This document shows, piece by piece, positions 3,926 to 61,368 of a stretch of 64,000 nucleotides of DNA. Origin of the DNA: Vicinamibacteria bacterium (GTDB taxonomy: Bacteria > Acidobacteriota > Vicinamibacteria > Vicinamibacterales > JAENWD01); NCBI GenBank assembly GCA_963800785.1, contig CAWDCH010000013.1:141877-205876 (forward strand), given 5' to 3'. The notes beneath the pieces are model-generated. The model was not told the DNA's origin, searched no databases, and was given only the letters and a program-made list of their open reading frames with translations. Position numbers and translations under genes: made by a program. Each line of letters starts with the position of its first letter. Position 1 is the stretch's first letter.

Positions 3926-4735
3926 ACGGATCGGACAAGTCACGGACGGACGCGGATGGCTATGGATCAATAGAAGGTCGCGGAGGGACGCGGGCTACAC
4001 GGACTGATTTTGGGCGGCCAGTCACGGGCAACGCATTGCAGGGGTCGCGCCGAAAACGGAAGCGGGCCAGAGGTCACGGACAAACGCGGATGGTCACGGA
4101 TCGACAGAAGGTCACGGAGGGACGCGGACGGTCACGGATTGACAAGGTCACGGACGGACGCGAACGGTCACGGATTGACAGAAAGTCATGGACAGACGCG
4201 ACGCGGACTTCACGGACTGTTGAACGGGCCGGTCTCGGGCGGCGCATGGTGGGGTCGCGCCGGGGACGGTAACGGATCGGAGGTCACGGACAGACGCGGA
4301 TGGTCACGGATCGACAGAAGGTCAAGGAGGGACGCGGACTACACGGACTGTTGAACGGGCCGGTCTCGGGCAACGCATGGTGGGGTCGCGCCGGGGACGG
4401 TAACAGATCGGAGGTCACGGACAGACGCGGATGGTCACGGATTGACAAAAGGTCACGGACGGACGCGGACGGTCACGGATTGACAGAAAGTCATGGACAG
4501 ACGCGGACTTCACGGACTGTTGACGGCACCGGGCTCGGCACGCATCGTGGGGTCGCGCGTCGGCCGGAGGCCGACGCGGGTCGAGTCGCGAGTGCGGACC
4601 GCAAGCCGCCTTCACCATCCCCACGCGGCTTGCGATCCGCACTCACGACTCGACTCAGCCGCGCGTCGCGTGGCGCGACCCTCGTCGTAGGGTGATGCCC
4701 GGCTGCTTCCGTGAACTTCCGTGTAATCCGTGACC
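3926..4735. repeat. composite word-repeat array (GTCACGG words, 131-bp higher-order repeat, inverted terminal words, 30-bp-arm hairpin)
   Basis: 14 exact and 8 one-mismatch GTCACGG words on the plus strand. Module CACGGACTG...GGGGTCGCGCC occurs at 3998, 4211, 4342 and 4511. Inverted words CCGTGA/CCGTGT/CCGTGACC lie at 4706-4735. Hairpin 4580-4609 / 4625-4654. Confidence 0.9.
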
Positions 4736-7698
4736 TACGAACTTGAAAGAACGGCGACGGGACAAGTGCTCAAGACATTGCCCAAGGCGATCGTAGGGCC
4801 GCTGTCCGTATCAGTAATCGACGGCACTTCGCCCGTGACGACGTTGCGGAGGCCGCTTGCGAAGCTGTCGGGGATACGGACAATCGTGTCCTGCCAAATC
4901 GTATCGGTGATCGGCCAGCCATTCTCGCTGTGAACCGTTGACGCGACGAGGCGCGGCACAATGGTGATAAGGCCACGGCCTCCATCATGACGCGCGTAAG
5001 CCACCACCCGTGCCCAGCGCGCCCCCTCCACGTGTAGCGGCACGTAGCTGCCGTTGAGCATGAGTTGCGGGTGCTGTTGCCGCAGCCGCAGCAACCGCGT
5101 CGTCAGCCACAGCTTGATTCGCCCATCGGGCCACGCCGCCAACAGATCGCTGACGATCGCGCTGAGCGCCAGGCCTCCTGGCGACTCTTCGCATTCCGAG
5201 GTTCCGATCGCGGCCTGAAGCGAGGCAAGGATGTCCCGACGCGCCGCGAAGTCGATCCGCTGGCGGTTGTCGGGATCGACCAGGTGCAGATCCCACAGCT
5301 CGTTCCCCTGGTAGATGTCGGGCACACCAGGGGCCGTGAGTTTGATTGCAAGCTGTGAAAGGCTGTTCACGACGCCGGCGCGAGCGACTCGTCTGGCAAA
5401 CGGCACGAACGCAGGAAGGAATCGTGCGGCATGGGGGCCGTCGAGCGTCTTCTCAATGAAGGTCGTTACCGCGGCGCCGTAGGCCTCATCGGGTGCGATC
5501 CAGCTCGTTCGCAACTTGGCCTCCCGCGTCGCCTTCATCAGAAACGCCGTAAGGCGTGCCGACAAGCCCTCGGGTGCCCTCGACGGGATGGGCGCCCCGG
5601 CGAGTTCCGCTGGCCACACGGACAGCAGCGACTGGTAGTACAAATACTCGTCGTTGTGCTCCGGTGCGGGCAGTGCATCGACGGTGTTTCGCAGTCCCGC
5701 GTTCATCCGCGCCCAGCGCGAGACTGTCTTCGCCCATTCGTCGGCCAGCTCCGACAGCACGTTCAGCCGCGCGCGCGCATCCTCCCCGCGCTTCGTATCG
5801 TGCGTGGCGGTCGTGGTCATGCTGAACGGCCACCGGTCGCGCCGCTCCGCGTTGGCTCGATGGAACGCGTCGATCGTCGTCATCGGCGCCGAGGGGTTAC
5901 CGCCGACCTCGTTCAGCGAGAGGAGCACGTTGTAGCGATAGAACGCCGTGTCCTCGACACCCTTCGCATGGACTGGCCCCGTGAATTGCTGAAACCGCAT
6001 GGTGAACCTGAGACGCTGGTCCATCGGATGGTCCTGCAGCGCAACCGTGTCATCGTGTCTGGCGCGTGCCGCCGCCGAGCCGAGCACGTGGCGGAGAAAG
6101 CCGAACGTCGCGCGTTCAGCAGCAGGATTCCGTCGATCTGCATGCTCGAACGCCGTCTCGATCGCGCGGCGATCGGCATCGCTGGCGCCGTACTCGTCGA
6201 TATAGGTGCGATACACGGGCAAGGCTGCGGCAACTTCCTGGAGCGCGTGGCTCAGCGTCCCGAGCGTGAAGTCGCGTGTCCTCCGATCCTGGTGCGCCAG
6301 GTCGTAGAGGGCATGCGCCAGCACGTTCAGCTCGCTGGCGAGCGTCGTCTGCATGATCAGGCGCTTCCCCTCGACGACCTCTTCTTCGAAGCTCTCCTGA
6401 CGACCGGTAATCCGGCGATATTGGCGCCGCAGACGCCAGAGCCCGTCGGGGTCCACGAACAGACTGTTCACGAGATTCAGGAAGTCGTAGCCCGTCGTGC
6501 CGTGAATCGGCCATGCCGGCAACGATTCGCCTGGCGAGAGAATCTTTTCGGCCAATACGTAGAGCGGCAATTCGCCCGACAGCGAGAGGCTGGAATCCGC
6601 GGAGGCGGGATCGGCGTCGCCATCGGCCGCGAGACGCTGGAGATTGGCAAAGTAGCGTGCCGGATCGAAGAGGCCGTCCGGATGATCGACGCGCACGCCG
6701 GTCACGGCGCCCTCGGCAATCAGCTTTTTCAGGAGACCATGCGTGTCGCGAAACACACGCGGTTCTTCCATGCGCAACGCGGCGAGGTCGTTCACATCGA
6801 AGAACCGCCGATAATTGATCTCGTCGAGCGCGGTTCGCCAGAAGGCGAGCCGGTAAGGCTGATGCTCGAGCAGATCGTGCAGGGGGTCGAAGCTCGCAGC
6901 ATTGCCAGGGGCACCATTGAAATGCCGGACCGCGGCCTCGATGTGTGCTGCGATCTCACCAGAGATCGCAACCAGCTGCAGCAGGCGCCGTCGCGCGACC
7001 TCCTTCTCGCGTTTTCGTTCCTCGATCCGCTCGGGTGTGCGCTCGTCGTACGTCGGCAGGTTCTGCAACGCGGACACGATGCTGAGGAACTCACGCACCT
7101 CGCCGTTGTCTTCGCTCACCCTCGCGCGAAGCGCGTCGAGGTTGTGGCGGTACACCGAGGGCGCCTGCCGCGGGTTGATGGGCAGCATGTGGTCGAAATA
7201 GCGGAGCTGCAGCGCGCCGCTCTCGAACGCCAGCTGCAGGTGGCCCCGTTCGAGCTCGTACCCGTACTGATCGCCCAGGATCGGCAGCAACAGCTTGTCG
7301 CGCATCGCCGACACCACCGGTGTCCAGTCGATGTCGAAGTAGCCAGCGTGCTCGGCGGACGGGCCGTTTTCGAGGACGTCGAACCACCATGCATTCGTGC
7401 GCGCATCCGTGCCCATGTGGTTGGGTACGAAGTCGAGCACTTGTCCCATCCCATGCGCCTGAAGCGCCGCGACAAACGCCTGATAGTCCTCATCGTCGCC
7501 AAGCTCGGGATTGAGGGCATTGTGGTCGCTGATGTCGTAACCGTGGAGCGTGCCTGGCGTCGCCTTCAGATACGGCGAGGCGTAACAGGCGCCGATGCCC
7601 AGCGTTGCTAAGTAGGGGACGAGCGCAGCCGCATCACGAAACGTGAAGCCTGTATGAAACTGCAGGCGATAGGTGCTCGACGGCACTCGCGCGATCAC
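4735..7698 (-). CDS. treY: malto-oligosyltrehalose synthase (TreY)
   Basis: 987-aa ORF. N-terminus [39 protein letters not shown], plus [10 protein letters not shown] and [12 protein letters not shown] overlap with the treS stop. Confidence 0.9.
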
Positions 7699-24671: not shown

Positions 24672-24776
24672 GCAAGGACGAAGGACGAAGAATGAGGGAC
24701 GAAGGACATGCGCTGAACAAGGCGTCCCTCGTCTCTCCTCCGTCGTCCTTCGTCCCTCGTCACTCGTCCCTCGGCC
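24671..24776. repeat. word hairpin (GGACGAAG / GAGGGACGA words and their complements)
   Basis: GAGGGACGAAGGAC (24694-24707) is perfectly complementary to GTCCTTCGTCCCTC (24744-24757). Further complementary words flank this core. Confidence 0.7.
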
Positions 24777-25885
24777 TCTACCTCCACATCCCCTTTTGCG
24801 CGCATATCTGCAACTACTGCAACTTCAACCGCGGTCTGTTCGATGAGCAGTTGAAGCGGGAGTATGTCGACGCGCTGGTGCAGGAGATTGGGTCGTCGGG
24901 CGACGGGTCTGCGGCAGACACTATTTTCTTTGGTGGCGGCACGCCGTCACTCCTGTCGGGCGAGGATGTCGGTCGGTTGATTGACGCCTGTCGCGACGCC
25001 TTCGACGTCGCGCCTGATGCCGAAGTCACCCTCGAAGCCAATCCCGAAACGGTGAGCGTCGAGAAGATTGCGGGCTACCGCGAGGCCGGCGTCAACCGCA
25101 TCAGCCTGGGCGTGCAATCCCTGGACGATCGGGAGCTCGCACGGCTCGATCGGCAGCACAATGCGGCGCGTGCGCGCCAGGCGTTGACCGACGTGCGGGC
25201 AGCCGGCATCGACAACGTCAGCCTCGATCTGATGCTGTGGCTGCCACAGCAGCGGCTCGAGGACTGGCAGTCGACGATCAACGGCCTCATCGAGCTCTCG
25301 CCGGACCACGCGTCCCTCTATCTCCTGGAGCTCTATCCCAATGCGCCGTTGAAGGAGTCCATCGCGCGGGAACGCTGGTCGCTTGCGCCCGAAGACGACG
25401 CGGCGGACATGTATCTGTGGGCGCTGGAACGCCTGGACGAAGCGGGGTACGAGCAGTACCAGATCTCGAACGTCGCGCGCGCCGGCCGAGTCGCGCGTCA
25501 CAACCTGAAATACTGGCGCGACGGGTCGTGGATTGGATTCGGGTGCGGCGCGCATTCGACGCGCGGCGCGTGGCGATGGGCGAACGTCGCCGGAACACGC
25601 GACTACGTTACACGTGTGACGAATGGCCTCTCCGCCGCCGACACGCGACGGCAGCGGACGGAGCAGGAGCGCCTGGAAGATGCGCTCTTCACCGGATTGC
25701 GGCTGTCCGAAGGCCTCGATCTGGACGTCATCGGCGGCCGTTACGGGGTCGATGCCTGGGACCGCTACGGCGACAGCCTCCGGCTGCACGAATCTGCCGG
25801 ACGTCTCAAGATCGACGGCCACCGCGTGCAGCTGACGCGCAGCGGAATGCTGGTCGCCAACGACGTGATGACCGTTTTCATCTAG
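24692..25885 (+). CDS. hemW: radical SAM heme chaperone HemW / coproporphyrinogen-III oxidase-like protein
   Basis: LGLYLHIPFCAHICNYCNF (CxxxCxxC), FFGGGTPS and GVNRISLGVQS. The nearest in-frame start upstream of the conserved core is ATG 24692, which lies inside the hairpin repeat. Confidence 0.85.
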   Translation: MRDEGHALNKASLVSPPSSFVPRHSSLGLYLHIPFCAHICNYCNFNRGLFDEQLKREYVDALVQEIGSSGDGSAADTIFFGGGTPSLLSGEDVGRLIDACRDAFDVAPDAEVTLEANPETVSVEKIAGYREAGVNRISLGVQSLDDRELARLDRQHNAARARQALTDVRAAGIDNVSLDLMLWLPQQRLEDWQSTINGLIELSPDHASLYLLELYPNAPLKESIARERWSLAPEDDAADMYLWALERLDEAGYEQYQISNVARAGRVARHNLKYWRDGSWIGFGCGAHSTRGAWRWANVAGTRDYVTRVTNGLSAADTRRQRTEQERLEDALFTGLRLSEGLDLDVIGGRYGVDAWDRYGDSLRLHESAGRLKIDGHRVQLTRSGMLVANDVMTVFI

Positions 25886-26553: not shown

Positions 26554-26710
26554 AACAACGAGCTCAGAGTGACGAGCTCTGAACGCGGAACCGCGAACGA
26601 CGAACGAACGCGGGGGTTCGTCCCCGTTCGGCGGTCGTCGCGCGGCGTTCAGAACTCGTCACTCACAGTTCGTCGCTTTGAGCTCGTTGTTCGTTGTTCT
26701 GAGCTCGTTG
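26554..26710. repeat. long imperfect word hairpin (ACGAGCTC / ACGAACGA words) between convergent genes
   Basis: GAGTGACGAGCTCTGAACGC (26566-26585) pairs with GCGTTCAGAACTCGTCACTC (26646-26665). Inner and outer words are also complementary. Confidence 0.75.
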
Positions 26711-30730: not shown

Positions 30731-31585
<855 letters not shown>

Positions 31586-31594
<9 letters not shown>

Positions 31595-31759
31595 GTGCCA
31601 AGTGCTAAGTGCTAAGTGGAGTGGGGAGTGGCTAGTGGAGAGTGGTTGCAGGACTGGTCAGATTGTCGCAGCTACGAGGAGCGGGGGGCTAGTCAGCCAC
31701 CACTTCCCACGACCCACTTCTCACTCCACTTAGCACTTGGCACTTAGCACTTGGCACTG
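31586..31759. repeat. word hairpin family copy 1 (CAGTGC[YAAGTGC]n AAGTGGAGTG... arms, ~58 bp each, ~50-nt core)
   Basis: The left arm (31586-31645) and right arm (31697-31759) are near-complementary. Both arms closely match the arms of the element at 61171-61353. Confidence 0.85.
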
Positions 31760-31771
31760 CTTTGGAGGTCC

Positions 31772-43533: not shown

Positions 43534-44000
43534 TCGAGTCAGCTAGCGGCTGGGAGTGGGCGCGGCAGGCAAGGGGTGTCGCCGTCCAGATGCTGTATCA
43601 GTGGGAGGTGGGCCGATTGACCGTCCCCGAAGTGGCGGAGTCGTTCTGGCGCATCGGCGAAATCGACGAGAGCATTCCCGACCGTGCGCGTGAACGGGCA
43701 GCCGAGCTCGTCCGCGGAACAGTAGAACAGCTTGGACGGATCGATCGCATCCTGGAGGACGCGTCGCGCAACTGGCGCCTCGATCGCATGCCGGTGATCG
43801 ATCGGCTAATTTTGCGGCTCGGGATCTATGAGCTGCTGTACGACACCGACACACCGTCCGCCGTCGTGATTGACGAAGCGATCGAGCTCGCACGTCGCTT
43901 CAGCACGGAAGAAGCCGTGCCGTTCGTGAACGGCGTGCTCGATGGCGTCAAGGATCGGATCGAACGCGGCGAGATCGCCGCAGGCCCCACAGCATCATGA
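43530..44000 (+). CDS. nusB: transcription antitermination factor NusB
   Basis: GTG 43530 overlaps the ribH stop (GTGA). Sequence includes AVQMLYQWEV, DRMPVIDRLILRLGIYEL and IDEAIELARRFS. Confidence 0.85.
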   Translation: MIESASGWEWARQARGVAVQMLYQWEVGRLTVPEVAESFWRIGEIDESIPDRARERAAELVRGTVEQLGRIDRILEDASRNWRLDRMPVIDRLILRLGIYELLYDTDTPSAVVIDEAIELARRFSTEEAVPFVNGVLDGVKDRIERGEIAAGPTAS

Positions 44001-45496
44001 GTCAGGAAGACGAGCAGGTTCAGCAGCGCCGCCAGCACCTCGAAAGTGTCGCCGCGCTTGGCGTCCCGACCTATCCGAATCGCTTCGATCGCACCGATAC
44101 CATTTCCGCGCTCGTCGCCGCGCACGGTGACGAAACTGCGGAGGCGCTCGAGGCAGGCAAGGTAGAGACCGTTACCGCCGGTCGCGTGCTGGCGATTCGG
44201 AGCTTCGGCAAGGCCAGCTTCCTGGCGCTTTCGGATGGCTTGCAGCGCATCCAGGTGTACATTCGGCAGGACGCCCTGCCGGAGCGCGACTTCCAGATCT
44301 ACAAGCTGCTCGACCTGGGCGACCATGTCGGCGTCGCCGGACATCTGTTCAGGACGCGCACCGGCGAGCTGACGATCTGGGCGAAAAAGCTCGAATTCCT
44401 GGCCAAGTGCCATCTGCCACTCCCGGAGAAGTGGCACGGGCTCACCGACATCGAAACCAGATACCGCCAGCGCTATCTCGATCTGATCGTCAACCCTGAA
44501 TCGCGCCAGGTCTTCGAAGTGCGGGCCAGGGTCGTCGCGACCATTCGCCGATTTCTCGATGCGCGCGGCTTCCTCGAGGTCGAGACGCCGGTGATGCAGC
44601 TAGTGGCAGGTGGCGCGGCGGCCCGGCCCTTCGTCACGCGTCACAATGCGCTCGACATGGACCTTTTCCTGCGCATCGCCCCCGAGCTGTATCTCAAGCG
44701 GCTCGTCGTCGGCGGCATCGAACGCGTCTACGAGCTGTCGCGGAATTTCCGGAACGAGGGCGTCTCTACCCAGCACAATCCCGAGTTCACGATGCTCGAG
44801 TTCTACCAGGCCTACGCGGACTATCAAGAGCTGATGGTCCTGACCGAGCAGATGCTGGTGGAAACGGCACAGGCGGCCATCGGACGCGAGGAGACTGAGT
44901 TCAACGGCCACACTATTTCGTTCCTTGCGCCGTTCAGGCGGCTCTCGCTGCGTCCCGCCGCCGCCGAGGCCGCAAGCCGGCGGCTCGCCGCGCCGGTCAC
45001 CGAAGCAGACCTGCGGCAGACGGAGACCGCGCTCGCTGTCGCGGCAAAGCTGGGGCTCGATCTTCCCAACTCGACGACGGCAGGCAAGGCGGCGACCGAG
45101 ATCTTCGAAGCCCTCTGGGAACGGGATCTCGTCCAGCCGACGTTCGTCTACGACTTTCCGACGGAGGTCTCGCCGCTTTCAAAGCAGAAGCCCGACGACC
45201 CGGACACCGTCGAGCGCTTCGAGCTGTACATCGGCGGCTTCGAGGTGGCGAACGCGTTCAGCGAGCTGAACGATCCGCTGGAGCAGCGCCGCCGTTTCGA
45301 GCAGCAGCTCGAGGAACGGCGCAAAGGTGACGCCGAAGCCCACGTGATGGACGAAGACTACGTCCGGGCGCTCGAATACGGTCTGCCGCCGACCGGCGGG
45401 GAAGGGATCGGCATCGACCGGCTCGTGATGGTGCTGACGGGAAGTCCCTCGATTCGGGACGTAATTCTGTTTCCCCACATGCGTCGACGGGACTGA
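43997..45496 (+). CDS. lysS: lysine--tRNA ligase (class II)
   Basis: 499 aa with an OB-fold N-terminal domain and class II motifs (FLEVETPVMQ, YELSRNFRNEG, GEGIGIDRLVM). Confidence 0.92.
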   Translation: MSQEDEQVQQRRQHLESVAALGVPTYPNRFDRTDTISALVAAHGDETAEALEAGKVETVTAGRVLAIRSFGKASFLALSDGLQRIQVYIRQDALPERDFQIYKLLDLGDHVGVAGHLFRTRTGELTIWAKKLEFLAKCHLPLPEKWHGLTDIETRYRQRYLDLIVNPESRQVFEVRARVVATIRRFLDARGFLEVETPVMQLVAGGAAARPFVTRHNALDMDLFLRIAPELYLKRLVVGGIERVYELSRNFRNEGVSTQHNPEFTMLEFYQAYADYQELMVLTEQMLVETAQAAIGREETEFNGHTISFLAPFRRLSLRPAAAEAASRRLAAPVTEADLRQTETALAVAAKLGLDLPNSTTAGKAATEIFEALWERDLVQPTFVYDFPTEVSPLSKQKPDDPDTVERFELYIGGFEVANAFSELNDPLEQRRRFEQQLEERRKGDAEAHVMDEDYVRALEYGLPPTGGEGIGIDRLVMVLTGSPSIRDVILFPHMRRRD

Positions 45497-45502
45497 GGCC
45501 GG

Positions 45503-45965
45503 ACAGACCACAAAACTGCAGACCACGGACCGCAGACCACAGGCCGATTCAGGCCCGCGGTCCTTCGGCGTCGATCACGACGATCAACTTCTGCAAGGTC
45601 CTGATGGTCTGAACGCTGTAGTTTTGCAACGAGATTGAGCGTCCTCACTCAGTAAAGACTGGCGCCTGCTCAAGTCGATTAGGTAGTCGGTTTCGCAGGC
45701 TGAGGATAGGGCTATGTCCAGGAAGCGTCGGTAATCGCGCTCCGATGTCCTTTGCAGACCCTTCGACGATATTGGCCGGAATCGACATTGCGGTACGTCG
45801 TAACTGGCTTTGTATTACGAACCGTCCGGTGACCGGGAACGCCTTGGTCTCTTCATAGATGCAAAGCGCGAGGGCATCGGCGAGGTGGAAGGCCTTGAGC
45901 TTTCTGTGGTCGTGTCTGTGGTCTGGAGTCTGTAGTCTGGAGCCTGTAGTCTGTAGCCTGTCACT
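45503..45965. repeat. inverted word arms (CAGACCACRG left, CTGTGGTCT/CTGTAGTCT right) enclosing a four-helix-bundle gene remnant
   Basis: The left arm (45503-45543) and right arm (45903-45965) are built from mutually complementary words. The enclosed gene fills the space exactly. Confidence 0.75.
45549..45914 (-). pseudogene. four-helix-bundle protein (23S rRNA intervening-sequence protein / Avd-like family), no start codon and at least one frame shift
   Basis: My three-frame reading gives DHRKLKAFHLADALALCIYEETKAFPVTGRFVIQSQLRRTAMSIPANIVEGSA, then a shift near 45751-45753. It continues RTSERDYRRFLDIALSSACETDYLIDLSRRQSLLSED, then a probable second shift near 45640, then SISLQNYSVQTIRTLQKLIVVIDAEGPRA*. 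Confidence 0.75.
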
Positions 45966-47186
45966 GTGCCCTTCGAACTCCACGTCGCCCTCCGCTACCT
46001 GCTCGCACGGCGGAAGCAGGCATTCATCTCGGTGATCTCGCTGATCTCCACGCTCGGCGTGGCGGTGGGGGTCAGTGCGCTCATCATTGCGCTGGCCCTC
46101 ATGACCGGGCTCCAGGGCGAGCTGCGCAACCGGATTCTCGGCGGGACCGCTCACGTGTACGTCTGGAAGCGCACCGGCCTCGTCGATCTTCCTGCGGAGA
46201 TCGCGAAGCTGCGCGCCGTCCAGGGGGTCGTCGGCGCCGCGCCGACGATTCAAGGGAAGGGGCTCGTCTCTAACGAGAAGGGCACGCAGTTCATCGGCAT
46301 CAAGGGCATCGACCCGAAGCTCGAGGGCGAAGTTACGGACCTCGCGAAATCGATGGTGGAGGGGACGATCGATGCGATCGCCGAGCAGAAAGGCGATCAG
46401 CCTCCGGGCATTCTGATCGGCGCCGACCTCGCGAAGGAACTGACGCTGCACGTCGGCGATTCGCTGACTGTGCTCACGCCCGAAGGGACGCTTTCGCCGA
46501 TGGGGTGGATGCCGCGCGCGCGGCGGCTGCGGGTGGCGGGCATCTTCCGACTGGGACTCTACGACTACGATGCCGCGTCGGGCTTCGTGTCGATCCCGGT
46601 TGCCGGGCGATTGATGGACAAGGCTCCGGACTTGATCGAGGTGAAGGTGTTCGACGCCTACCAGGCGCCGGCAATCGCCGATCGCATCGCGACAACGTTC
46701 GGCCCCGATTACTGGGTCCAGGACTGGGCCGACATGAACCGATCGCTCTTTTCTGCGCTCTGGCTGGAGAAGATGGTCATCTCGATCACGATTGGCCTCA
46801 TCGTCGCCGTTGCCGCGCTCAATATCATCGCGTCGCTGGTGCTCCTCGTCATGGAGAAGAGCCGCGACATCGGCATCCTCAAGACGATGGGCGCCACCAG
46901 CCGCAGCATCATGGTGGTGTTCATGCTGCAGGGGCTGGTCATCGGCCTGGTCGGCACCGGCGTGGGCGCCGTCTTTGGCGGCGGCCTCGCCTATGTTCTC
47001 GATCGCTACCAGCTGATTCAGATTCCCGCCGACGTCTACCAGGTCTCGCACGTGCCGTTCGTGATGCTGCCCGGAGACCTGGCCGCCGTTATCATCGGCG
47101 CGGTCATCATCTGCTTCGTGGCAACGATCTATCCCTCCCGGCAGGCGGCGCGGTTGGACCCGGTGCAGGCGTTGAGGTTCGAATGA
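45966..47186 (+). CDS. lolE: lipoprotein-releasing ABC transporter permease (LolC/LolE family)
   Basis: 406 aa with FELHVALRYLLARRKQAFISVISLIS, MacB-like periplasmic and FtsX domains. Confidence 0.88.
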   Translation: MPFELHVALRYLLARRKQAFISVISLISTLGVAVGVSALIIALALMTGLQGELRNRILGGTAHVYVWKRTGLVDLPAEIAKLRAVQGVVGAAPTIQGKGLVSNEKGTQFIGIKGIDPKLEGEVTDLAKSMVEGTIDAIAEQKGDQPPGILIGADLAKELTLHVGDSLTVLTPEGTLSPMGWMPRARRLRVAGIFRLGLYDYDAASGFVSIPVAGRLMDKAPDLIEVKVFDAYQAPAIADRIATTFGPDYWVQDWADMNRSLFSALWLEKMVISITIGLIVAVAALNIIASLVLLVMEKSRDIGILKTMGATSRSIMVVFMLQGLVIGLVGTGVGAVFGGGLAYVLDRYQLIQIPADVYQVSHVPFVMLPGDLAAVIIGAVIICFVATIYPSRQAARLDPVQALRFE

Positions 47187-47195
47187 CGGGAGTGG

Positions 47196-47319
47196 CCTGC
47201 GGGCTTCGGGCTACGGGCCACAGCTTGCCCAAGCTAAAGCTTGGGCCTACGACTGCCTGCGCAGCGATCGTACGCAGGCCCGAGCTTCAGCTCGGGCAGC
47301 CTGAAGCCTGAAGCCTGCC
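47196..47319. repeat. compound hairpin element (outer GGCTTCGGGCT / AGCCTGAAGCC words plus three perfect short hairpins)
   Basis: Hairpins are at 47227-47246 (8 bp, loop TAAA), 47255-47279 (7 bp) and 47278-47297 (8 bp, loop TTCA). The outer words are complementary with one G-U type mismatch. Confidence 0.6.
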
Positions 47320-55546: not shown

Positions 55547-55658
55547 GAATCCGCAATCCGAATCGGCAATCTAACTCTGCACTCTAAATCCGCAATCCAG
55601 TCCGCAATCCAATCCGCGATCCAATCCGCAATCCACAATCCGCAATCCGCAATCCGAA
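55547..55658. repeat. direct word array (AATCCGC / AATCCGCAATCC), no complementary arm
   Basis: About 12 same-orientation copies or variants of AATCCGC run up to 2 nt before the lpxI ATG. Confidence 0.7.
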
Positions 55659-55659
55659 G

Positions 55660-56490
55660 ATGCGCCTGGGTCTAATCGCCGGTAACGGTAGATTTCCGTT
55701 TCTGGTGCTCGATGCCGCACGCGCGCAGGGCCACGACGTCACGATCGTCGCGGTGAAGGACGAGGCCTACCCGGACCTCGCCGACCTGGCGGCCAGATCC
55801 CCGCAGGCGCCCATCCACTGGGTACCGCTTGGTCATCTCGGCACCTGCATCAGAATCCTGAAGGACGCCGGCGTCAGCCATGCGGTGATGGCCGGACAGG
55901 TGAAGCACACGAAGATTTTCAGCGTCATGCCGGACTTGACGTTGCTCTCCGTGATTGCACGTCTGAAGGCCCGCAATACCGACGCGCTCATCTCGGCGGT
56001 GGCCGATGTCCTGCGTGAGAAAGGCATAGCGCTACTCGACTCCACCGAGCTGCTGCGGCCGCTGCTGGCGACGCCTGGTGTGCTGACATCGCGCGCGCCG
56101 AACGCCGCGGAGGAGGCGGACTTCGCATTCGGATATCGGATGGCGGATGCGATCGCGGGACTCGACATCGGGCAATCGATCGCCGTGCGGGACGCGGCGG
56201 TAGTGGCGGTGGAGGCAATGGAGGGGACCGACGAAATGATCCGACGCGCCGGTCGTCTGGCGGGGCAGGGGATCCGGGTGGTGAAGGTGGCAAAGCCCAG
56301 ACAGGACATGCGTTTCGACGTGCCCGTCGTCGGCGCGGCGACGATCGCCGTGATGCGAGAGGTTGGCGCGACGGCCCTTTCGGTGGACGCCGGCAAAGCG
56401 CTGCTCATCGACGGTCCCGACGTCGTTCGCGTCGCCAACGATGCCGGCATCGCCATCGTCGGTCGCGCAGTAGTGGAGGCGGGGCTCTAA
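55660..56490 (+). CDS. lpxI: LpxI-family UDP-2,3-diacylglucosamine diphosphatase (DUF1009)
   Basis: [21 protein letters not shown]..., [10 protein letters not shown] and [26 protein letters not shown]. It sits in a lipid A gene context. Confidence 0.8.
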
Positions 56491-61159: not shown

Positions 61160-61170
61160 ACTGACGCTGA

Positions 61171-61353
61171 CAGTGCCAAGTGCCAAGTGCCAAGTGGAGT
61201 GAAGAGTGGAGAAGTTTGGAGTGGTGGGTATGAGTTACGTCGTTGCCGTTCTTGTTTGATTGGTCGCACAGTCGACGATCTGACCGATTGAGCCACTAGT
61301 CACTTTCCCACTTCTCACTCCACTTCGCACTTCGCACTTGGCACTTGGCACTG
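61171..61353. repeat. word hairpin family copy 2 (same arms as 31586-31759, ~64-nt core)
   Basis: Left arm CAGTGCCAAGTGCCAAGTGCCAAGTGGAGTGAAGAGTGG...; right arm ...CCCACTTCTCACTCCACTTCGCACTTCGCACTTGGCACTTGGCACTG. Confidence 0.85.
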
Positions 61354-61368
61354 TACAGTTCTTCCCCA

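Follow-up and report, generated by a model that had tools for sequence, protein, structure and literature searches.

A decayed cassette of the intervening-sequence type outside rRNA: a four-helix-bundle pseudogene enclosed by inverted heptamer arrays between lysS and lolE in a Vicinamibacteria bacterium

Intervening sequences (IVSs) of 23S rRNA that carry an open reading frame (ORF) of the PF05635 ("S23p") family have been published for Coxiella burnetii and Leptospira. In the Coxiella IVS the S23p ORF is decaying and is preceded by GACAGAT heptamers, two or three depending on the strain; the terminal stem measures 28 bp, and RNase III cleaves where the first repeat begins (Warrier et al., PMC4990558). 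Here we describe an element of the same layout at a protein-coding locus, in a 64,000-nucleotide (nt) stretch of contig CAWDCH010000013.1 from a Vicinamibacteria bacterium, which as a whole is called the window below and has a G+C content of 64.6%. Between lysS and lolE the window contains a pseudogene for a four-helix-bundle (4HB) protein of the PF05635/TIGR02436 family, which lies antisense to its neighbors within two inverted arrays of 7-nt words. The element is an IVS-type cassette outside rRNA, inherited vertically and decayed in this copy.

Three other described systems share some of these parts. Heptanucleotide repeats are known as the short tandemly repeated repetitive (STRR) sequences of cyanobacteria, the GGGAATC-type repeats of Xanthomonas and Nostoc (Rehm et al. 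2015), the TAACTGA repeats of Beggiatoa and Microcystis, and the paired hepta- and octanucleotide arrays of Geobacter metallireducens, which were proposed to be sites for global regulators (IHF/HU) (PMC2700814). They are intergenic tandem words of 7 nt (sometimes 8 nt) in 2 to 26 copies, variable in number, often in convergent inverted pairs and often right at stop or start codons, and the hairpins of the window fit this description. The arrays of the window element are likewise intergenic and of period 7 (4.1 and 8.7 copies by Tandem Repeats Finder [TRF]), but they enclose a gene, and the repeat papers draw no link to PF05635. REP/REPIN-RAYT systems combine one gene flanked by inverted repeat copies with many gene-free intergenic hairpins and persist vertically for long periods. 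The window-type system also has a gene with inverted arms and many gene-free hairpins, but no repeat sequence is shared within the genome, each arm is a tandem array instead of a single palindrome, and the protein is not an HUH/Y1 transposase. Lastly, the Avd accessory proteins of diversity-generating retroelements (DGRs) are small basic 4HB proteins of the same structural superfamily (PMC10053308), as the proteins described here are basic, with a pI of 9 to 10 in the intact copies. The window locus differs in that no reverse transcriptase (RT) was found among the neighbors or 10 other ORFs tested, no template repeat (TR) or variable repeat (VR) is present, and there is no phage match.

The element lies in the 469 nt that separate the lysS stop (45496) from the GTG start (45966) of the lolE-type permease gene. 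Its parts and flanks are as follows (L numbers denote loci from other genomes; HMM, hidden Markov model).

45504-45546, no strand: left arm, a CAGACCA-type array of 7-nt period with three clear words (TRF, 4.1 copies), just 3' of the stop in the 4HB sense; pairs with the right arm
45549-45625, minus strand: C-terminal segment of the 4HB pseudogene (HMM 97-118) with the TGA stop at 45549-45551 (frames, HMM scan, repair)
45622-45625, minus strand: A-run (TTTT on the plus strand) that is one deleted A shorter than in intact orthologs (AAAAA to AAAA) (DNA alignments; repair restores the frame)
45626-45750, minus strand: middle segment of the 4HB pseudogene (HMM 54-102), out of frame with the N- and C-terminal segments (HMM scan)
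45751-45753, minus strand: A-run that is longer by one inserted nt than in intact orthologs (DNA alignments, repair)
45754-45914, minus strand: N-terminal segment of the 4HB pseudogene (HMM 3-58), beginning ..HDHRKLKAF, with no start codon (HMM scan)
45913-45914, minus strand: junction of a deletion of ~45 to 50 nt relative to L084, L085, L002 and L001, with GACCACAG words on both sides (alignments)
45903-45961, no strand: right arm, a period-7 array of TCTGTGG/TCTGTAG/TCTGGAG (TRF, 8.7 copies), upstream of the gene in the 4HB sense (TRF, alignment, folding)
43997-45496, plus strand: lysS (lysyl-tRNA synthetase), 5' flank of the element, a 499-aa ORF (L001 and L002 orthologs with PF00152/PF01336)
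45966-47186, plus strand: lolE-like permease gene (MacB_PCD and FtsX), GTG start, 3' flank of the element (ORF, orthologs)

A preliminary description of this locus had proposed a 4HB (IVS-protein/Avd-like) gene remnant with one frame shift, probably a second, and no start codon, its 5' end meeting an arm. The frames of positions 45549-45914 (minus strand) do hold the peptides on which that proposal was based. Removal of one base and addition of another gave an uninterrupted frame of 121 codons, HDHRKLKAFHLADALALCIYEETKAFPVTGRFVIQSQLRRTAMSIPANIVEGSARTSERDYRRFLDIALSSACETDYLIDLSRRQSLLSEDAQSRCKNYSVQTIRTLQKLIVVIDAEGPRA, ending at TGA 45549-45551, and the repaired product scored over the full domain. 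An earlier hand-spliced translation matched PF05635 with 83.4 bits (E = 1.6e-23; cut-off, 33.8) over profile positions 1-105 of 106 and TIGR02436 with 81 bits (cut-off, 24), so the suggested comparison with the family models came out well above threshold. In a six-frame scan with an HMM built from 4HB homologues, the three frame pieces of this gene were the sole matches in the 64 kb. The best relative of the family in the Protein Data Bank (PDB) was 2GSC (E = 1e-21), 2RLD being also found, and Avd was not retrieved at E <= 0.001.

The gene is not translatable as it stands, since it has no start, a 5' deletion and a +1 and a -1 indel. The first frame shift is at 45751-45753, where it had been placed, and the second is at 45622-45625, 15 to 18 nt from the ~45640 suggested. 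As described, no ATG, GTG or TTG is present upstream in frame before the right arm. Comparison with the closest intact copies, L084 and L085, showed that after ...CCAGACCACAGAC these run on for ~45 nt followed by ATGAGC, where the window jumps to ACGACCACAGAAAGC; the deletion thus took from the window copy the leader, a sigma54-like YGGC-N8-TGC motif and ATGAGC. The last word of the arm, GACCACAG, recurs as codons 4-6 of the gene (D-H-R), and for this reason the gene seems to "run into" the arm. In addition, two near-invariant residues are replaced (E32G and G35V).

The two inverted 7-nt tandem arrays and the enclosed gene fill the lysS-lolE spacer, in agreement with the preliminary description. 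The CAGACCAC words of the left arm are at 45504-45513, 45519-45528 and 45533-45542, the last ending 6 nt from the stop codon, and the right arm, which is nearly base for base that of L084 and L085, stops 4 nt short of the lolE GTG. The arm duplex has a free energy (dG) of -63.9 kcal/mol, compared with -34.9 +/- 4.7 kcal/mol for shuffled arms (best shuffle, -52.9), and the two arms pair with each other in the minimum-free-energy fold of the whole spacer on either strand. The terminal inverted repeats therefore form a stem around the whole element, as in IVSs, and the arms have stayed complementary although the gene is dead. Across the window the CAGACCACRG word is not overrepresented (10 matches versus 8.3 expected), and 6 of the 10 matches are within the two arms; the word clusters at this locus only in the 64 kb. 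Dispersed near-identical copies of its terminal repeat, as in a miniature inverted-repeat transposable element (MITE) or a REPIN, are thus absent from the 64 kb, and no target-site duplication was seen at the element; another hairpin family of the window, AGTGCYA, does have two copies.

The nearest intact proteins are 59 to 73% identical to the repaired window protein in full-length alignments. Two of them, P0014 (L001, the same as L004; on a 3.15-Mb contig of a Vicinamibacteria metagenome-assembled genome) and P0003 (L002; a JGI contig), are encoded antisense between lysS and lolE-lolD-clpC, the genes that also surround the window element. A metagenome scan with the N-terminus of the window LolE as the query returned 80 loci, of which the closest, L084 and L085 (LolE 95 to 96% identical), have an intact 124-aa 4HB gene at the same site. 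All four of these intact orthologs have inverted period-7 arrays on both sides, as does a relative at an unrelated site (P0013, L003). The arm words of the relatives are related and not identical (GGCTACG/CGTAGCC, GGCTACA/TGAAGCC and CAGACTA/TAGTCTG). L084 and L085 encode an identical 4HB protein and have arms that differ by 14 nt in one and ~50 nt in the other, a difference put down to slippage. Among the intact copies dN/dS was 0.09 to 0.22 (with saturated dS), and the protein has therefore long been kept by selection; the pairwise dN/dS of the window copy is similar, which indicates that its inactivation was recent. PADLOC gave no defense-system match for three intact orthologs.

The assignment to the IVS type rests on an insert in Azospirillum lipoferum 4B AZO_p2 (L173), which has the same anatomy, size and word type (GGAC/AGAC/GGCT cores) as the window element. 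This insert is located inside a bona fide large-subunit (LSU) rRNA gene (Rfam, 1100 bits, model positions 585-1962) and consists of 469 nt in which 33-nt arms of heptamer words, TCAGAGGACGGATGACAGAGGACGGAGGACAGA and its complement, enclose a 4HB ORF. In both settings a 4HB ORF of ~120 aa occupies the loop of a terminal inverted-repeat stem, with the same parts in the same order. IVS elements measure ~430 to 470 nt, and the 469 nt of the Azospirillum insert equal the 469 nt of the window spacer. Tandem heptamer arms with GAC cores, strain-variable copy number and an ORF that is often decaying are likewise common to both. The differences are that the window element lies antisense between lysS and lolE rather than in an rRNA helix, that window-type arms are longer (40 to 60 nt or more), that within the arms of the intact relatives the gene has a sigma54-like promoter motif of its own, and that RNase III processing has been shown for rRNA IVSs only. 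Rfam returned nothing relevant (at E <= 1 for the locus and at the gathering score for the whole window), and no LSU rRNA is present in the window.

The association between 4HB genes and arrays was then measured in 80 loci (834 kb) from species-representative genomes of Acidobacteriota, Planctomycetota, Verrucomicrobiota, Myxococcota, Desulfobacterota, Chloroflexota, Nitrospirota, Gammaproteobacteria and others, in which 73 4HB genes were counted. Strict arrays had a period of 7 (75 arrays) or 8 (22 arrays), with essentially none at the other periods from 4 to 12. Among the 150-nt flanks of 4HB genes, 41% of those upstream and 36% of those downstream showed period 7, compared with 0.8% of random windows, while periods 4-6 and 9-11 were at ~0 to 4%. 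A period-7 or -8 array within 250 nt was present on at least one side of 49 of the 73 genes (67%), compared with 58 of 800 random pseudo-genes placed in the same loci (7%), and on both sides of 29 (40%), compared with 2 of 800 (0.25%). As a stricter control, intergenic gaps without a 4HB gene were examined and carried arrays in 44 of 292 cases (15%); arrays are therefore common in these genomes, and gene-bearing gaps are approximately four-fold richer. The two-sided arrangement is rare apart from 4HB genes. For comparison, the window has 8 period-7 arrays in its 64 kb, and E. coli K-12 had 0 in 50 kb.

The words themselves also recur across phyla. On the sense strand, the upstream regions are enriched 7- to 18-fold in AGAC, TAGAC, AGACA and AGGCT, and the downstream regions show enrichment of the complements. 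Many arrays reach the ATG and resemble the first codons, ATG AGA GAC TAC/CAC (M-R-D-Y/H), and one GGGAATC array that Rehm et al. (2015) list in their supplement (#15) overlaps the start codon of XCC0516, whose product was crystallized as PDB 2GSC. Arm complementarity was far above chance in ~30% of the loci, and the cognate arm was the best partner of ~16 tested in 21 of 73 loci, a count of limited weight, since shared cores let the arms of different loci cross-pair. Six plasmid copies from cultured organisms were inspected as an independent sample, and those of Nostoc punctiforme, Calothrix and Gemmatirosa have inverted arms. Intact homologues with flanking inverted repeats, for which the preliminary description had proposed a survey, are thus present in the orthologs, in L003, on plasmids and, as two-sided arrays, in the 29 genes counted above. 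Only two relatives were found in IMG/VR, and both viral contigs show the gene with the array layout; no tblastn match was found in 50,697 GenBank phage records. Two side observations concern further cassettes. A second syntenic cassette site in Vicinamibacterales follows a moeA-like gene (L005, L007, L008 and L025); the cassettes there have long GGGCTTG/GGTCTTG arms, and their 5' arm is separated from the promoter-like motif by ~170 nt of additional conserved leader (..GTACGCAGTTyCyGCGATC..). At L032, positions 693-900 hold consecutive GGACCTA/TAGGTCC hairpins 3' of the 4HB gene, an array cluster rather than a single 3' arm.

The sigma54 -24/-12 promoter has the consensus TGGCACG-N4-TTGCW. The motif YGGC-N8-TGC, whose GG and GC doublets and spacing are those of such promoters, was found 12 to 14 nt before the ATG in 13 of the 80 genome loci (~0.4 expected) and in L084 and L085. 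The loci are L001, L002, L003, L008, L009, L014, L015, L018, L021, L027, L032, L052, L071, L084 and L085, all of them from Acidobacteriota where named. The distance from the motif to the ATG would imply a nearly leaderless mRNA.

Heptamer hairpins without a gene occupy the same spacer in more distant organisms. In ~70 further relatives (LolE 57 to 68% identical) lysS adjoins lolE with no 4HB gene, and period-7 arrays are present in 22 of 36 lysS-lolE spacers of 20 to 200 nt. At least nine of these spacers are compact hairpins of lineage-specific heptamers, and a few others have one-orientation arrays. The words of the spacer hairpins include CAGTTGA, GTTGTCA/CAACTGA, GGTAGCC/GGCTACC, GTTGGTA, GGCTCCA/GGAGCCC, GTGGCTA/CCAGCCA, GCAGGCG and GCCGNCA. 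Larger lysS-lolE spacers (683 to 2165 nt) were considered as cassettes and rejected, as they hold unrelated long ORFs on the opposite strand. At lysS-lolE, then, the gene-free heptamer hairpin is the widespread state and the gene is confined to the closest clade. As gene-free hairpins also fill this spacer in more distant relatives, it is the hairpin that is more general and that persists, with the 4HB gene resident in a subset. To the preliminary description, the element looked like the parent of the window's other, empty hairpins. This view was not borne out, because the other hairpins are built from AGTGCYA, AAGGACG and AATCCGC words and gave no 4HB remnant in a sensitive six-frame HMM search; given the distribution at lysS-lolE, the direction may even be the reverse.

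The spacer following lolE is a second hot spot, with inverted heptamer arrays in L002, L091, L104, L118, L148, L150, L156 and the window. The window has the following feature there.

47194-47317, no strand: gene-free hairpin in the lolE-lolD spacer with short arms GGGCTTC GGGCTAC ... AGCCTGA x3, dG -87.9, ending at the lolD ATG (folding)

Its words belong to the same word family as those of the window cassette, 1.2 kb away, and the same is true in L002. Gene-free hairpins span the distance from the stop codon to the next start codon and lack a U-tract; in appearance they are less like terminators than like intercistronic elements of processing or stability.

Additional gene-free structures were seen in the window. 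Large AGTGCYA/AGTGGAG hairpins are located at 31585-31760 and 61170-61354 (dG, -132 and -110 kcal/mol). They are copies of each other, 29.6 kb apart, with arms 79 to 94% identical and loops that are partly alignable. The first (175 nt) ends at the start of the adenosine kinase (AdoK) gene. In relatives, the corresponding PNP-AdoK spacer holds an AAGTGNN hairpin (at 84% identity), non-complementary heptamer arrays (at 93%) or a REP-like palindrome (at 96%), and these differing fillers confirm fast hairpin turnover at a second site. The REP-like palindrome, GTAGGGCGGACCTTxAGGTCCGCCCTAC (L091, L124 and L167), fills lysS-lolE or PNP-AdoK spacers that elsewhere hold heptamer hairpins. Positions 24672-24780 form a gene-free hairpin of AAGGACG/CGTCCCT heptamers (dG -80), and 26554-26691 form an imperfect palindrome of ~140 nt with ACGAGCTC/GTTCGTC words (dG -92). 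A one-orientation array of the AATCCGC type with ~17 copies (TRF, period 7) runs from 55548 to 55656 and ends 3 nt before the ATG at 55660. Finally, an intergenic block of ~800 nt at 3930-4740 is made up of ~10-nt words (GGTCACGGAC/AGACGCGGAT) and includes three 131-nt modules, a perfect 30-bp hairpin (4580-4654) and, at 4700-4740, inverted copies of the word; the block gave no 4HB remnant.

Taken together, we consider it probable that the element is a decayed IVS-type cassette whose arms are paired and RNase-processed in read-through RNA. In read-through lysS-lolE transcripts the two arms would pair, and the stem would be cut by a double-strand-specific RNase, which by analogy with IVSs may be RNase III. 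Excision of the antisense cassette in this way would leave stem-capped lysS and lolE mRNAs, so that a cassette could be a small burden to a transcribed housekeeping operon or to rRNA. The 4HB gene would be expressed from its own promoter, in Acidobacteriota a putative sigma54-type promoter giving a nearly leaderless mRNA. The arms would evolve by replication slippage, as suggested by copy numbers that differ in near-identical relatives and by the covariation of the two arms. By homology to Avd, the 4HB protein most likely binds nucleic acid, and it may possibly bind the repeated word.

Several observations weigh against this explanation or against parts of it. Both frame shifts sit in homopolymer runs and could be assembly errors. 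A sequencing artifact as the whole explanation was rejected, as the replacements of near-invariant residues and the 5' deletion are not homopolymer errors and the long neighboring genes are intact; the 5' deletion cannot be an assembly error. The genome sample was drawn with peptide patterns of the window subfamily and is hence biased toward its relatives, and even so about one-third of the 4HB genes have no array at the threshold used. A mere stem would not need word cores that are common to different phyla, which hint at a sequence-specific partner. The arm mismatches showed no strand asymmetry of G.U pairs (33 versus 38 loci; G.U sums of 750 versus 833), so that this test does not demonstrate selection at the RNA level and a role at the DNA level is equally compatible with it. 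The promoter-like motif lies within the arms, so the 4HB gene's own mRNA would lack the 5' arm. Among the plasmid copies, that of Nostoc 7120 gamma has non-complementary arrays and that of Pseudanabaena galeata pPg_01 (L174, 46268-46627), with cas6 on one side and cas4 on the other, is flanked by arrays in direct orientation (17 copies of AAAAGCT upstream and 10 of AAAAGCC downstream), so that no stem is possible in either. A passage of one publication reports a CRISPR association of the PF05635 family (PMC10910872), which the position of the Pseudanabaena copy fits. Lastly, the RNase III step is carried over by analogy from rRNA IVSs.

The lack of a G.U bias, the promoter inside the arms, the conserved word cores and the non-pairing arrays keep two other explanations alive. 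One is that the gene cassette and the hairpins are an autonomous/non-autonomous pair similar to REPIN-RAYT or MITE systems, in which the 4HB protein creates, maintains or spreads hairpins, the gene cassette being the master and the gene-free hairpins its derivatives. The layout of one gene with arms and many gene-free hairpins is as expected for such a pair, the lolE-lolD hairpins of the window and L002 share the word family of the cassette, the two AGTGCYA hairpins are copies of each other, and the 84%-identity relative has the same AAGTGNN-type hairpin in its PNP-AdoK spacer. The loci with 4HB genes are also rich in arrays in general, both in their other gaps and in the window relative to E. 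coli, and arm words share cores across phyla. However, the words differ among the hairpins of one genome, with no single cognate sequence; no gene-free window hairpin contains a 4HB remnant; the gene-free state is phylogenetically the wider one at lysS-lolE; motifs of nucleases, recombinases and polymerases are missing from the protein, which had no PADLOC match either; and no target-site duplication was seen. We give this explanation a modest chance. The other holds that the arrays are DNA or RNA binding sites with one word per subunit of a multimer, be it the pentameric 4HB protein itself (autoregulation), a sigma54 enhancer-binding protein, or IHF/HU, as proposed for the paired arrays of G. 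metallireducens (PMC2700814). Conserved 5'-arm cores with their complement in the 3' arm, arrays that abut or overlap start codons and mimic the first codons (including that of XCC0516), copies with direct or non-complementary arrays, and the need of a sigma54-like motif for an upstream activator site are all in its favor. Complementarity far above chance in ~30% of the loci, with the cognate arm the best of 16 in 21 of 73, would not be expected of it, nor would complementarity that outlasts the death of the gene; moreover, a 7-nt period misfits the helical repeat of double-stranded DNA, and the short-loop gene-free hairpins are compact stems. Its chance appears small.

It could also be that the arrangement has no function, a small gene having been inserted by chance among repeats that arose by neutral slippage in a repeat-prone genome. 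Arrays in 15% of the intergenic gaps of these genomes and the unstable copy number of the arms are in line with this. The both-sides frequency of 40% versus 0.25% in random controls is not, and neither are the inverted orientation and complementarity kept over five orthologous loci with different words, the recurrence of the layout in rRNA IVSs and at least six phyla, or the restriction of the enrichment to periods 7 and 8. We consider this very improbable. The association with Avd and DGRs raised in the preliminary description survived as a family resemblance, Avd being structurally related to PF05635 (PMC10053308), and as nothing more. That the locus is a DGR remnant whose 4HB gene was formerly an Avd accessory gene is effectively refuted. 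In agreement with the earlier observation that RT, template repeat and rRNA are absent, the Rfam, repeat and ORF checks found none: no RT was present among the neighbors, lysS, lolE, lolD and clpC, or the 10 mid-sized ORFs tested, all housekeeping (the window was not exhaustively scanned for RT), and no direct repeat suitable as a TR/VR pair was found in the window. In addition, the gene has been retained at this site by four relatives in the absence of any RT, and the phage records gave no match. To our knowledge, heptamer arms are not a described feature of DGRs.

Heptamer arrays, including inverted pairs, have been described previously in Xanthomonas, Nostoc, Beggiatoa and Geobacter, as have the heptamers of the Coxiella IVS. 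No publication linking non-rRNA PF05635 genes to flanking heptamer arrays was found in the full-text literature outside subscription journals, and the link of 4HB genes to heptamer repeats appears to be undescribed. For annotation, long hairpins of 7-nt period at the junctions of housekeeping operons are conserved in position and not in sequence, and they should not be taken for CRISPR-like arrays or assembly artifacts. A wider reading, which we put forward tentatively and regard as doubtful, is that PF05635 proteins and heptamer arrays (STRR-type, GGGAATC-type and Geobacter paired arrays) form one cross-phylum system, in which the protein would recognize the 7-nt word on single-stranded nucleic acid and help to generate, maintain or home into the hairpins, the 23S IVSs being copies that landed in the loops of rRNA helices. 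If this were true, the 4HB cassette would be the autonomous member of a new class of hairpin-resident elements, and the family would have a function outside DGRs. Three loose ends meet in this cassette, namely, the origin and purpose of 23S IVSs and their ORF (open since the early 1990s), the role of PF05635/TIGR02436 outside DGRs, and the cause of heptanucleotide repeats. If the cassette is one entity, these questions may be approached in culturable hosts, for example, with XCC0516 of Xanthomonas campestris, for which a crystal structure is available, or NPUN_RS34290 of Nostoc punctiforme.

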